From a virus (taxonomy: Duplodnaviria > Heunggongvirae > Uroviricota > Caudoviricetes), in IMG/VR virus record IMGVR_UViG_2671180378_000015: a DNA stretch of 29,797 bases; one strand, 5' to 3'. Shown here one piece after another: positions 3,849-8,060 of the stretch. Made by a program: the position numbers and the translations under genes. Numbering within the stretch: position 1 is the first letter of the stretch; every line of letters starts with the position of its first letter. Under the pieces are notes generated by a model. That model made no database searches. It had not been told where the DNA came from and saw only the letters and a program-made list of their open reading frames with translations.

Positions 3849-4601
3849 ATGAACCTTGAAGCCTTACCAAAATATTACTCCCCAAAATCTCCAAAATTGA
3901 GCGATGACGCTCCAGCGACAGGCACCGGTTGTTTAACAATTACGGATGTAATGGCAGCGCAGGGGATGGTGCAGTCGAAAGCACCACTTGGGTTGGCCTT
4001 ATTTCTGGCAAAAGTTGGTGTTCAGGACCCTCAGTTTGCGATTGAAGGCCTGCTAAATTACGCGATGGCACTGGATAACCCGACATTGAACAAATTGAGT
4101 GAAGAAATCCGGTTACAGATTATTCCTTACCTCGTGAATTTTGCCTTTGCTGATTACTCCAGGTCTGCGGCAAGTAAGGCTCGCTGTGAGCATTGTTCAG
4201 GTACGGGATTTTATAATGTATTGCGCGAAGTGGTGAAACACTACCGACGCGGGGAATCTGTAATCAAGGAAGAATGGGTGAAGGAACTATGTCAGCATTG
4301 CCATGGTAAGGGTGAAGTCAGCACAGCGTGCAGAGGGTGTAAGGGTAAAGGGATTGTTCTGGATGAAAAAAGAACCCGGTTTCATGGCGTACCGGTATAT
4401 AAGATTTGTGGGCGTTGTAATGGAAACCGGTTTAGTCGTTTACCGACCACGCTGGCACGACGTCATGTCCAGAAGCTGGTACCAGACCTGACCGATTATC
4501 AGTGGTATAAGGGGTATGCGGACGTCATTGGTAAACTGGTAACAAAGTGCTGGCAGGAAGAAGCATACGCGGAAGCGCAATTGAGGAAGGTGACGAGATA
4601 A
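3849..4601 (+). CDS. quuQ: Late-gene antiterminator Q (phage-82/21-type, Cys-rich zinc-binding) (250 aa)
   Basis: ORF track; start taken at MNLEALPKYY (ATG 3849); CxxC...CxxC clusters (CEHCSGTG, CQHCHGKG, CRGCKGKG, CGRC); position immediately upstream of a promoter-terminator pair. Confidence 0.85.
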   Translation: MNLEALPKYYSPKSPKLSDDAPATGTGCLTITDVMAAQGMVQSKAPLGLALFLAKVGVQDPQFAIEGLLNYAMALDNPTLNKLSEEIRLQIIPYLVNFAFADYSRSAASKARCEHCSGTGFYNVLREVVKHYRRGESVIKEEWVKELCQHCHGKGEVSTACRGCKGKGIVLDEKRTRFHGVPVYKICGRCNGNRFSRLPTTLARRHVQKLVPDLTDYQWYKGYADVIGKLVTKCWQEEAYAEAQLRKVTR

Positions 4602-4632
4602 ATGATTTTTGCTGAAGATGGCGACATGATGT

Positions 4633-4661
4633 TTGCATTTTTCAAAAAATATGGATAAAAT
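4633..4661 (+). promoter_or_regulatory. Candidate late promoter pR' (Q-modified)
   Basis: TTGCAT (4633-4638) - 17 nt - TAAAAT (4656-4661), about 30 nt downstream of Q stop, followed within 60 nt by a terminator, as expected for a Q-utilisation unit. Confidence 0.45.
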
Positions 4662-4706
4662 TTTTTCAACGATGGGCTTTGTATACCCGACGTTAAGAAA
4701 AAGTAG

Positions 4707-4735
4707 AAAACCCGCTGATGAGCGGGTTTTGTGCT
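4707..4735 (+). terminator. Candidate tR' terminator downstream of late promoter
   Basis: aaaacccgct gatg agcgggtttt stem-loop plus U-tract. Confidence 0.6.
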
Positions 4736-5022
4736 TTAAATGGGGCAATGGTAATGTTGAATCTCATCCCGGGACTCATGTCTGTTAACTTATTATTTAG
4801 CTGGTGACTTGGTTATTTGCCTGATGTTTAAAATGTTTTCTTCCAGTACAATGTCCCTAAACACAATGAGTCTGCTTATTATATTATTAGCAGAGCTATT
4901 ACGGCCAAAGTACAGCATAAGCTTTTAAAGCCAATCAACCAGTCATCAAGACAGACGGGGTTATTCATAAAAACTCTCCATGTGTGATCCGATGGGGCCT
5001 GAAATTAAAGCTTTAATATAGC

Positions 5023-5235
5023 TCATGAAAGGTAAACATTGGCAGCTGAAGGGCCACGCAGACCATTTATCCGGCAAAATTCCACGCGTAATCCGGTGGT
5101 AATTTCTTCTGCATCGCGGAGATTGAGCGCTGAAACATGAAGCTGGACATCGATACGACCATCGGATGGGGTGATAAGACCCTTGCCGCTTTTGCCGTCA
5201 AAGGTTTTGACAATTCCTGTCATTTTACGGGACAA
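5023..5235 (-). CDS. cspF: CspF cold-shock-domain protein paralog (70 aa)
   Basis: ORF track [40 protein letters not shown]...; CSD fold signature. Confidence 0.85.
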
Positions 5236-5339
5236 AAAAATTCCTTAATACTGATAACTTGGCGCACTATACACACGTTCCTGAAGAAAGCTATAGTTTT
5301 TTGATGGGGTTGAAGATGGCTGGATGTCTAAAATAAACA

Positions 5340-5368
5340 TTGCTTCATATGTTCAACTATGCGTTAAT
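5340..5368 (+). promoter_or_regulatory. Candidate cspB promoter with long (about 165 nt) 5' UTR
   Basis: TTGCTT - 17 nt - GTTAAT; the same architecture and an identical ATGCGTTAATG core recur upstream of cspI. Confidence 0.4.
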
Positions 5369-5535
5369 GATTGCGTCGGTTTGAAGAACAGACGATATAC
5401 GAAGTAGTTTACTAAAGCAGTTCTCATTTCAGGTGTTATTCACTTATTCCTTCTTTGAGTCTCTCCAATTAAGTACGAAGTCGTTTCTGTTATGCAAACC
5501 ATTTATGCCGAAAGGCTCAAGTTAAGGAATGTAGA

Positions 5536-5751
5536 ATGTCAAATAAAATGACTGGTTTAGTAAAATGGTTTAACGCTGATAAAGGTTTCGGCTTTATTTC
5601 TCCTGTTGATGGTAGTAAAGATGTGTTTGTGCATTTTTCTGCGATTCAGAATGATAATTATCGAACCTTATTTGAAGGTCAAAAGGTTACCTTCTCTATA
5701 GAGAGAGGTGCTAAAGGTCCTGCAGCAGCAAATGTCATCATTACTGATTAA
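5536..5751 (+). CDS. cspB: CspB cold-shock protein (71 aa)
   Basis: ORF track [38 protein letters not shown]...; RNP1-like KGFGFI motif. Confidence 0.9.
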
Positions 5752-6032
5752 AATTCATCGCTCGTCTGTATACGATAACGAAGAAGGCTGATGCCTGAGT
5801 AGAGATACGGACAGAGTAGTGAATATTGGATCTCTTTAATAAAAAGTAAGGAGGTCCAATACATGAAACAATGGCTAGCATATTTGGCAAAATCTTAATC
5901 AGGAAAAGTATGCTAACCATTGTGGTGAAGTGCAGGTTTGCTGCATGAATAGTTTCACAGCAGAAGCTAACTGCTGGCATCGCAAAACAAAGTGCGTAAG
6001 TGGATGACTCCCACAAAAAGCACCACAATCTC

Positions 6033-6056
6033 AAACCCGCTCAGGCGGGTTTTTTA
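6033..6056 (+). terminator. Rho-independent terminator downstream of cspB (possibly bidirectional)
   Basis: aacccgc tcag gcgggtt followed by tttttt. Confidence 0.6.
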
Positions 6057-6114
6057 TTATCTGCTTTAAATATATTATTAAAATATAAAAAATACTTGTT
6101 ACTAATAAAATCAA

Positions 6115-6285
6115 TCAGGCTACAGCTTTAAGATTTGTCTGGAATACTTTGTTGCAATGAGGGCAGATCAAAAGGGCACCTTTTTGTACTCTTGAAAAAC
6201 TGTGTTCTGACTCTTGGGTGCAGTTTGGGCAGGAACATTTAACGAGATAATTACGGCGTGATTTTGAGTCTTTACGTTCTGACAT
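6115..6285 (-). CDS. Small Cys-rich (putative zinc-ribbon) protein, 56 aa; not in ORF track
   Basis: Hand translation of minus strand: MSERKDSKSRRNYLVKCSCPNCTQESEHSFSRVQKGALLICPHCNKVFQTNLKAVA; RBS AGGAAAAgcct before ATG; two Cys clusters CxCxxC ... CxxC. Confidence 0.45.
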   Translation of the reverse strand: MSERKDSKSRRNYLVKCSCPNCTQESEHSFSRVQKGALLICPHCNKVFQTNLKAVA

Positions 6286-6504
6286 AGGCTTTTCCTGTAT
6301 AATGGCCGTATACAGTACACTAAATATGAAAACATTTCTCGTATTATTATTTTATATATGACTTTCTTTCAAAATAATTACTCACATTTTTAATGTGTAT
6401 GTTTCTTTAGCGCCGTTGAGAACAACGTGTGCTGTCAAAACTACCCCGTAGACTCCGATCTTTTTCAAACATATTGCACCATCCGTGTACATCGGGGTGA
6501 GGAT

Positions 6505-6720
6505 ATGAAATCAATGGATAAGTTAACAACAGGTGTTGCCTATGGCACATCGGCGGGTAATGCTGGTTTCTGGGCATTACAGTTACTCGATAAAGTAACT
6601 CCGTCACAGTGGGCTGCAATCGGTGTGCTGGGTAGCCTGGTTTTTGGCCTGCTGACGTATCTGACAAATCTTTATTTCAAGATTAAAGAAGACAGGCGTA
6701 AGGCTGCGAGAGGAGAGTAA
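6505..6720 (+). CDS. essQ: Phage-21-type class II holin (pinholin) with dual-start MKSM motif (71 aa)
   Basis: [71 protein letters not shown]; two TM segments, charged C-terminus; RBS GGGGTGAGGA before ATG 6505. Confidence 0.85.
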
Positions 6721-6724
6721 TCCA

Positions 6725-7032
6725 ATGACTCAAGACTATGAACTGGTTGTGAAAGGAGTCCGTAATTTTGAGAATAAAGTTACGGTAACTGTAGCCTTAC
6801 AGGACAAGGAACGCTTTGACGGTGAAATTTTTGACCTGGATGTCGCCATGGACCGTGTTGAAGGAGCTGCGCTGGAGTTTTATGAGGCAGCAGCCAGAAG
6901 GAGCGTCCGGCAAGTCTTCCTGGAAGTAGCAGAAAAATTGTCAGAAAAAGTTGAGTCTTATCTGCAGCATCAGTACTCCTTTAAGATTGAAAATCCTGCC
7001 AATAAGCACGAGCGTCCTCATCATAAATATAT

Positions 7033-7036
<4 letters not shown>
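6725..7036 (+). CDS. ydfR: YdfR-like protein (DUF1327), 103 aa
   Basis: ORF track MTQDYELVVKGVRNFENKVTV...; position between holin and endolysin as in Qin. Confidence 0.7.

Positions 7037-8060
<1,024 letters not shown>

Follow-up and report, generated by a model that had tools for sequence, protein, structure and literature searches.

The window analysed here is the whole of the viral record IMGVR_UViG_2671180378_000015 (29,797 nucleotides (nt), Caudoviricetes). Our subject is a compact promoter-terminator unit at 4633-4735, directly behind the antiterminator gene quuQ, which we interpret as a probable lambda-type late promoter pR' with its first terminator tR'. RefSeq annotation assigns the region to the Qin cryptic prophage of Escherichia coli K-12. 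The 241 bases around the unit showed 100% identity to E. coli K-12 MG1655 and had a match in 1629 of 5426 complete E. coli genomes. The gene order given by RefSeq for Qin is ydfU, ydfT (= quuQ), ynfS, cspF, cspB, ynfU, essQ, ydfR, rrrQ, and rzpQ; the essQ holin is named essD in one record. The coordinates of the features are collected in Table 1.

Table 1. Features of the quuQ-rzpQ region in window coordinates; the names pR' and tR' follow our interpretation of the unit.
Feature	Position	Strand	Evidence
quuQ/ydfT, 250 amino acids (aa), lambda-Q family antiterminator	3849..4601	+	RefSeq: ydfT, antitermination protein
pR' −35 hexamer TTGCAT	4633..4638	+	gap-free alignment with lambda TTGACT
Spacer TTTTCAAAAAATATGGA, 17 nt, candidate Q-binding element (QBE)	4639..4655	+	lambda pR' spacer match
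pR' −10 hexamer TAAAAT	4656..4661	+	lambda TAAATT, same register
Start A4668, pause element AACGAT and GGG discriminator-like triplet (AACGATGGG)	4668..4676	+	dRNA-seq, lambda identity
Promoter-proximal pauses, RNA 14-19 nt, peak 4684/4685 (17-18 nt)	4681..4686	+	RNET-seq 1640428-1640433(−)
67-nt terminated pR' RNA, counterpart of lambda 6S RNA	4668..4734	+	start site and Term-seq 3' end
tR' intrinsic terminator; stem 4707-4730, GC core 4711-4726, RNA 3' end C4734	4707..4734	+	fold, Term-seq
Cargo slot, tR' to lysis genes	4731..6492		homology breaks, SfV/Ayreon/mEp460
ynfS	4879-4968	−	RefSeq annotation
cspF	5023-5235	−	RefSeq annotation; Pfam CSD
cspB, own leader and terminator	5536-5751	+	RefSeq annotation; Pfam CSD
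cspB terminator	6033-6060	+	−14.2 kcal/mol, z −3.9
ynfU	6115-6285	−	RefSeq annotation
Lysis genes essQ holin, ydfR, rrrQ lysozyme, rzpQ	6505..8060	+	Phage_holin_2_1, DUF1327, Phage_lysozyme, DUF2514

QuuQ matched the Pfam family PF03589 with an E-value of 2.9e-54 as a full-length lambda-family Q, and BLASTP aligned it with lambda Q over the full length at 33% identity (E 3e-40). Its identity to the Q proteins of phages SfV, Ayreon, and Stx2c was 94-95%. The sequence matches of QuuQ in the PDB were to Q-lambda only (7UBM/7UBN, 4MO1, and 7UBJ-L), and a fold search with its AlphaFold model (pLDDT 77.7) retrieved those same entries; neither the sequence search nor the fold search of the PDB gave a match to Q21 or Q82. 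Pfam returned PF03589 and PF00684 only, and thus neither PF06323 (Q82) nor PF06530 (Q21). The Q families PF03589 (lambda), PF06530 (21), and PF06323 (82) are unrelated and have their own QBE layouts (PMC9388147). The initial annotation, made from the DNA alone, had named phages 82 and 21 as comparators; the right comparator is instead lambda pR', as indicated by PF03589, the 33% identity to lambda Q, and AACGATGGG. Judged by its sequence, quuQ is an intact lambda-family Q gene, and the unit lies directly downstream of it.

Compared with lambda Q, QuuQ carries a 48-aa insertion at residues ~121-168, inside the zinc-ribbon arm. QuuQ has four CxxCxGxG repeats (C113, C148, C161, and C187), similar to the DnaJ cysteine-rich domain (Pfam PF00684 match); lambda Q has the outer two repeats only. 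In the AlphaFold model part of the insertion, residues 121-147, formed a long beta-hairpin with pLDDT of 70-83, and the insertion is kept in the 250-269-aa Q proteins of many Enterobacteriaceae. In lambda Q, the zinc-ribbon arm touches positions 11-13 of the QBE as well as the repositioned sigma region 4 (PMC9388147). The Q encoded on a 22.9-kb contig labelled 'MAG: Veillonella parvula' (JAGZPX010000007.1) shows 100% identity to E. coli QuuQ; this is probably an E. coli prophage contig that was mis-binned in a metagenome assembly.

The last base of the quuQ stop codon is 4601, and 31 nt lie between the stop codon and TTGCAT. The hexamers and the 17-nt spacer were thus as first described, while the distance of 30 nt given with them was one nucleotide short. 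AACGATGGG, which the initial annotation did not mention, begins 6 nt past TAAAAT and is identical to lambda pR' +1 to +9. Aligned without gaps from −35 to +9, Qin and lambda pR' shared 32 of 44 positions (counted from the alignment), distributed as 4/6 in the −35 hexamer, 11/17 in the spacer, 5/6 in the −10 hexamer, 3/6 in the discriminator, and 9/9 in the pause element. In lambda pR', AACGAT at +1 to +6 is a −10-like element that is re-bound by sigma70, resulting in a promoter-proximal pause, and the GGG acts as a discriminator-like sequence (PMC4005639). In Qin, too, the initial transcribed region carries a −10-like element for sigma-dependent pausing, with the GGG discriminator-like sequence behind it. 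The spacer of lambda pR' holds the lambda QBE, and with 11 of its 17 positions shared, the Qin spacer is a candidate for the QBE bound by QuuQ. Across genera the spacer showed the conserved pattern TTC(A/G)(A/G)AAA...TGG, which takes the form TTCAAAAA..TGG in Qin.

The hexamers alone were no commoner than chance: 10 promoter-like sites were found between 3500 and 8000, against 8.3 ± 2.9 in shuffles. The consensus scan preferred the register TTTGCA-18, and TTGCAT matches TTGACA at 3/6 positions only. The composite motif TTGC..-(16-18)-TA...T-6-AAYGATRGG had a single match in the window and no match in 100 shuffles. It is therefore the composite motif, its conservation, and the experimental support that raise the feature above chance. 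An open reading frame of 51 codons with a TTG start, 4633-4788 on the plus strand, covers the promoter, the RNA, and the terminator, and is recorded as a hypothetical protein in phage PhiR42_1. Much like orf-64, which lies over the lambda 6S region, this frame is almost certainly not a gene.

Published K-12 data, together with the sequence, show initiation at 4668, sigma70-associated pausing, and termination at 4734. To read these data, ydfT was placed at 1642489..1643241(−) in NC_000913.3, where the A of AACGAT is 1,642,422; by a 1976-bp offset the same base is 1,640,446 in NC_000913.2. The value of 1976 bp is what we take the offset between the two versions to be; it agrees with the length of the.3 record, given the length that we assume for the.2 record. 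The conversion is supported because the mapped start lands exactly on the A of AACGAT.

Sigma70-affinity RNET-seq pauses, and for each of them the closest dRNA-seq start, are tabulated in.2 coordinates by Sun et al. 2021 (Supplementary Data 1, PMC7876045). The dRNA-seq start (Thomason et al. 2015, as tabulated by Sun et al. 2021, PMC7876045) is 1640446(−), equal to window 4668. It lies 7 nt past TAAAAT and is the predicted +1, so the published table holds an active sigma70 promoter with a mapped start, and the transcript expected to begin near 4668 begins exactly there. Among the Cappable-seq entries listed, there was none at A4668. The strongest pauses at this site in the delta-greAB strain were 1640429(−), with a score of 6881 at 17 from the start, and 1640430(−), with a score of 5783 at 16 from the start. 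These scores were about 12th and 24th, respectively, among the entries listed in the delta-greAB sigma70 sheet. Weaker entries stood at 1640428 and 1640431-33 (PMC7876045), and later sheets of the table hold further entries for the pause site. This result indicates that sigma70-containing polymerase pauses ~16-17 nt from the start in vivo, with 3' ends 13-18 nt downstream.

The 3' end was found in the Term-seq table of Adams et al. 2021 (supplementary file 1, PMC7815308) at 1642356(−) of U00096.3, equal to window 4734. It had 103,591 and 55,368 reads in two growth-condition sheets and was classed as 'orphan' (PMC7815308); the sequence around it in the table is ...AGCGGGTTTTGTG-C-TTTAAATGGG. 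A start at 4668 and a 3' end at 4734 give an RNA of 67 nt, within the 50-70 nt that had been anticipated for a short terminated transcript. The whole putative transcript showed a folding energy of −30.4 kcal/mol (z = −6.1). The tR' hairpin, AAAACCCGCT-GATG-AGCGGGTTTT at 4707-4730 followed by GTGCTTT, starts 45 nt past the −10 hexamer and had an energy of −23.6 kcal/mol with z = −9.6 against shuffles; a strong intrinsic terminator about 45 nt past the promoter, as described in the initial annotation, is thus confirmed, and it lies shortly enough downstream to yield a short RNA. The motif scan called the tR' terminator on the minus strand only, because it absorbs the T-run into the stem.

Upstream of the tR' hairpin an A-tract, GAAAAAGTAGAAAA, reads as a T-run on the minus strand (4697-4730, minus strand). 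It was present only in relatives with the csp segment (Qin, 2H10, and E1V33), not in SfV-type phages. From these letters the hairpin looks bidirectional in Qin and would end the convergent cspF-ynfS transcript. The RNAalifold consensus paired the GC core of tR' only. In the pairs of the terminator and of the 5' hairpin, no compensatory double changes were observed; conservation and one-sided changes were seen. The energy of the 5' hairpin was not significant (Qin z −1.5, lambda z −2.0), and we do not claim it as a structure. CGTT at +24 to +27 is near-invariant across relatives and able to pair with AACG at +1 to +4 (4668-4694), and a similar 5'-terminal hairpin, AACGA with UCGUU, is possible in the lambda pR' RNA (L002 788-812). 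The Rfam scan over 4629-4797 returned chance-level matches only, at 16 bits against thresholds of 68 and 124, and no family for the 67-nt RNA. A permissive Rfam scan over 4300-6600 also gave no family for the RNA; it returned the cspA thermoregulator on the cspB leader and otherwise chance-level matches only.

Conservation of the unit was then read from relatives. The first viral-contig scan, with a single-protein query, recovered relatives of 95-100% identity only; the divergent loci come from an alignment-based scan with one genome per species. The unit was present after Q in 13 loci whose Q proteins were 63-94% identical, namely phages SfV, Sal3, and F1055 and genomes of Enterobacter, Mangrovibacter, Kosakonia, Phytobacter, Atlantibacter, Scandinavium, and Buttiauxella. 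In the loci of those genomes Q was just 63-73% identical. It was also present after two Q genes just 40% identical (E. coli and E. albertii). Common to these loci were TTG...-(16/17)-TA...T-6-AA(C/T)GAT(G/A)GG, a GC hairpin, and a T-run, all in the same place after Q. In the close phages (SfV, Ayreon, mEp460, Stx2c-converting phages, Salmonella phages 118970_sal3 and F1055, and 2H10) the −35 hexamer, nearly all of the spacer, and AACGATGGGCTTT(G/A)TAT were near-invariant.

By part, the −35 hexamer was TTGCA(T/A) in relatives with Q 63-95% identical, the −10 hexamer was TAAGAT or TAGGAT, and the pause element was invariant or read AATGAT/AGG. The hairpin was retained with differing stems and loops. 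Mean identity to Qin was 76% in the −35 to +27 core, 70% in the Q gene, and 60% in the 31 nt from the stop codon to −36. G at +8 and T-G at +17/+18 were conserved in most relatives; K-12 has A at +18. A G(−10)/Y(−1)/G(+1) signal has been published for sigma-dependent pauses (PMC5001585), and the conserved +8 and +17/+18 appear to fit this signal. Two loci formed exceptions without the unit, L102 (Mangrovibacter plantisponsor) and L109 (Klebsiella michiganensis, with a truncated Q). L102 has a terminator-like hairpin directly after the Q stop codon (1884 onward). Both are likely decayed prophages.

In a BLAST of 3849-7100, homology of SfV, Ayreon, and mEp460 began with the start of Q and stopped at 4730, where the tR' stem ends, and that of Ayreon and mEp460 resumed at 6493, which is 12 nt before the essQ start codon. 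By these breaks the 1.76-kb ynfS-cspF-cspB-ynfU segment is a replaceable cargo. The lysis genes, with essQ at 6505, lie beyond the csp insert and 1.8 kb further on, as had been described. Ayreon and mEp460 hold other genes in the slot, including a DNA methylase, and the distance from tR' to the holin was 1.6-2.4 kb in SfV, Ayreon, and mEp460. Further terminators are annotated before the holin, two in the Ayreon record and one in the SfV record. Stx2c phages made up 15 of the 35 matched phage records; in the one checked in detail, the slot holds a methylase, tRNA-Met, and tRNA-Arg, with stx2c A/B ~2.6 kb downstream of the homologous promoter, and Q is 95% identical. Between 2H10 and Qin, colinearity at 94% extended from Q across the csp genes and reached into the holin. 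The layouts of SfV, Ayreon, mEp460, Stx2c, and 2H10 suggest that long-range read-through is normal for this module, which supports read-through in Qin as well.

Taken together, we consider the unit to be the late promoter pR' of Qin together with a Q-utilisation (qut) site and tR' as the first terminator, built and working like those of lambda, with a probability of about 0.88. In K-12, sigma70 RNA polymerase starts at A4668, sigma70 re-binds the −10-like AACGAT(GGG) at +1 to +9, and the complex pauses with an RNA of 14-19 nt. Transcription stops at the hairpin and U-tract at 4734, leaving a constitutive 67-nt RNA. In the steps proposed beyond this, QuuQ, when made, would bind the element between −35 and −10 and load onto the paused polymerase. 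So modified, the polymerase would then continue past tR', across ~1.8 kb of csp cargo, and past the terminator of cspB to reach essQ-ydfR-rrrQ-rzpQ. Homology to lambda and the gene order point to such Q-dependent read-through into the lysis genes: holin, lysozyme, and spanin genes lie downstream on the same strand, a layout common to 2H10, SfV, Ayreon, and mEp460. The late promoter with a first terminator right after Q, as proposed in the initial annotation, agrees with the start at 4668, the 3' end at 4734, and the same layout in 2H10, and its dependence on Q is presumed. The 'at least two more' terminators said to lie before the lysis genes were not established. On the plus strand before essQ, one clear further terminator was found (6033-6060), together with a 3' end at 4902 at a weak hairpin.

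Several points weigh against this interpretation. Where lambda has the −35-like TTGACT, immediately before the pause element, Qin has TTTTTT instead. The 48-aa insertion lies in the arm of QuuQ that, by analogy with lambda Q, would face the QBE and sigma region 4, and the loading geometry may therefore differ. The start site and the pause are NC_000913.2 table entries converted by the assumed 1976-bp offset. We infer the binding of QuuQ to this DNA and the suppression of tR' by analogy with lambda. Finally, Qin is a cryptic prophage, which bears on whether quuQ is expressed.

Three other explanations were weighed. The 67-nt RNA could be the functional product of a free-standing small-RNA gene, a regulator that is trans-acting or 5'-hairpin-stabilised like StxS, with the link to Q historical or secondary. 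It is constitutive and abundant (103,591 Term-seq reads in one condition), +10 to +27 is conserved beyond the pause element, and there is precedent in StxS, whose source in Stx phages is the terminated transcript of pR', and in lambda 6S RNA, which has no assigned function (PMC7547250). If it were true, the conserved +10 to +27, including the invariant CGUU that can pair with the 5' AACG, would serve a regulator role and not pausing alone, and the 'orphan' 3' end of the datasets would belong to a prophage-derived small RNA so far unrecognised in K-12. However, the conserved positions +8, +17, and +18 match the known pause signal G(−10)/Y(−1)/G(+1), and the +28 to +40 linker varies in sequence and length. 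The 3' tail in K-12, UUUUGUGC, is presumably a poor Hfq-type tail, and the RNA had no Rfam family match. We regard a regulatory function as unlikely, and it would be compatible with a pR' role in any case.

A second possibility is that the hairpin merely terminates the Q (early) operon and the convergent cspF-ynfS transcript, with the hexamers as a chance match. In favour of this, the hairpin has an A-tract upstream and a T-tract downstream and was called on the minus strand in the scan, and hexamer pairs in this AT-rich region were no commoner than in shuffles. This is contradicted by a start exactly 7 nt past the −10 hexamer and by sigma70 pauses at 14-19 nt of RNA in the tabulated data. The composite motif was absent from all 100 shuffles, and relatives without cspF also keep the promoter and pause element. 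A bidirectional hairpin is itself compatible with a pR'-tR' unit, and we find the chance-match explanation scarcely credible. The late promoter of the lysis genes could also lie just upstream of essQ, leaving the post-Q unit as a relic of a decayed prophage. A perfect TATAAT is present at 6298-6303, 200 nt before essQ, and this element, near 6296-6303, had been offered in the initial annotation as the possible true late promoter. It showed no acceptable −35 partner in the promoter scan. It lies within the swappable 4731-6492, which is replaced wholesale in Ayreon and mEp460, and outside the conserved holin module; in mEp460 the start of the holin gene lies 5 nt past the methylase gene that precedes it. 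The sole start found near 6300 is on the opposite strand, at 6305, in a table that covers only starts close to pauses. That start, NC_000913.2 1638809(+) or window 6305(−), has a sigma70 pause 10 nt downstream, stands 20 nt upstream of the ynfU start codon (6285), and is likely the ynfU promoter. A late promoter at the TATAAT is hence most improbable, though less so than a chance match of the hexamers.

As a lambda-type pR'-tR', the Qin unit can be compared directly with its model. In lambda and Qin alike, the promoter stands directly after a PF03589 Q gene and has a 17-nt spacer, a 6-nt discriminator, and the identical AACGATGGG at +1 to +9. In both, transcription that ends at an intrinsic terminator leaves a short RNA made constitutively, and the lysis genes follow downstream. 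The lambda pR' pause is at +16/+17, compared with 17-18 nt of RNA in Qin, and lambda 6S RNA is 194 nt, compared with 67 nt for the Qin RNA. The spacers differ at 6 of 17 positions, with TTGAA...TGG in lambda and TTCAA...TGG in Qin. Of the two, only Qin has the 48-aa DnaJ-like zinc insertion in the DNA/sigma-contacting arm of Q. Before the holin, Qin has ~1.8 kb of cargo with a convergent gene, whereas lambda has ~0.4 kb.

Stx phages resemble Qin in that cargo (stx and tRNAs) lies between tR' and the lysis genes, and in that pR' is always on and its transcript, in the lysogen, ends a little way downstream as a short RNA (PMC7547250). StxS differs, being a 74-nt RNA that binds Hfq and is processed from a 258-nt transcript with another sequence (Sy et al. 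2020, PMC7547250). Phages 82 and 21 share the arrangement of Q gene, promoter, sigma-dependent pause, and terminator (PMC9388147). The post-Q element of SfV and Ayreon is homologous, with 82-85% nucleotide identity through the terminator stem, and their records annotate only a 'putative rho-independent terminator', without promoter, pause element, or RNA.

In the literature on quuQ/ydfT, Qin, and SfV we found no paper or annotation naming this promoter, pause site, or RNA in Qin. The accessible main text of the Sun and Adams papers likewise held no prophage late-promoter link for these entries. The Qin unit is a straightforward instance of a textbook system, previously unannotated, and it leaves the understanding of Q antitermination unchanged. 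Its identification names and explains two K-12 dataset entries, the high-ranking sigma70-dependent pause of Sun et al. and an abundant 'orphan' 3' end, and gives the standard laboratory strain a lambda-type pause/antitermination site that is native to its chromosome. The module stands upstream of stx2c in Stx2c-converting phages, so its properties are relevant to how the toxin is expressed. Behind tR' lies a defined slot for cargo swaps of lambdoid phages, which place cold-shock genes, a methylase, tRNAs, or toxin genes there.

A few observations concern the csp cassette itself. Escherichia sp. E1V33 (L096) is without 4746-5313, which contains ynfS and cspF. A second Term-seq 3' end lies at window 4902 (+), equal to U00096.3 1642188(−), with 87,904 reads in one condition. 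It is 168 nt past tR' and antisense to ynfS, and the AT-rich hairpin there was not significant (z −1.2); this 3' end could be pR' read-through or a processing site. The cspB leader and gene (5375-5767, +) matched the Rfam cspA thermoregulator with 161.6 bits. In the same Term-seq table, 3' ends at 5864 and 5866 (+), ~115 nt past the cspB stop codon and without a hairpin, were very abundant (604,404 and 1,233,565 reads), and another 3' end was listed inside the cspB leader at 5456 (+).

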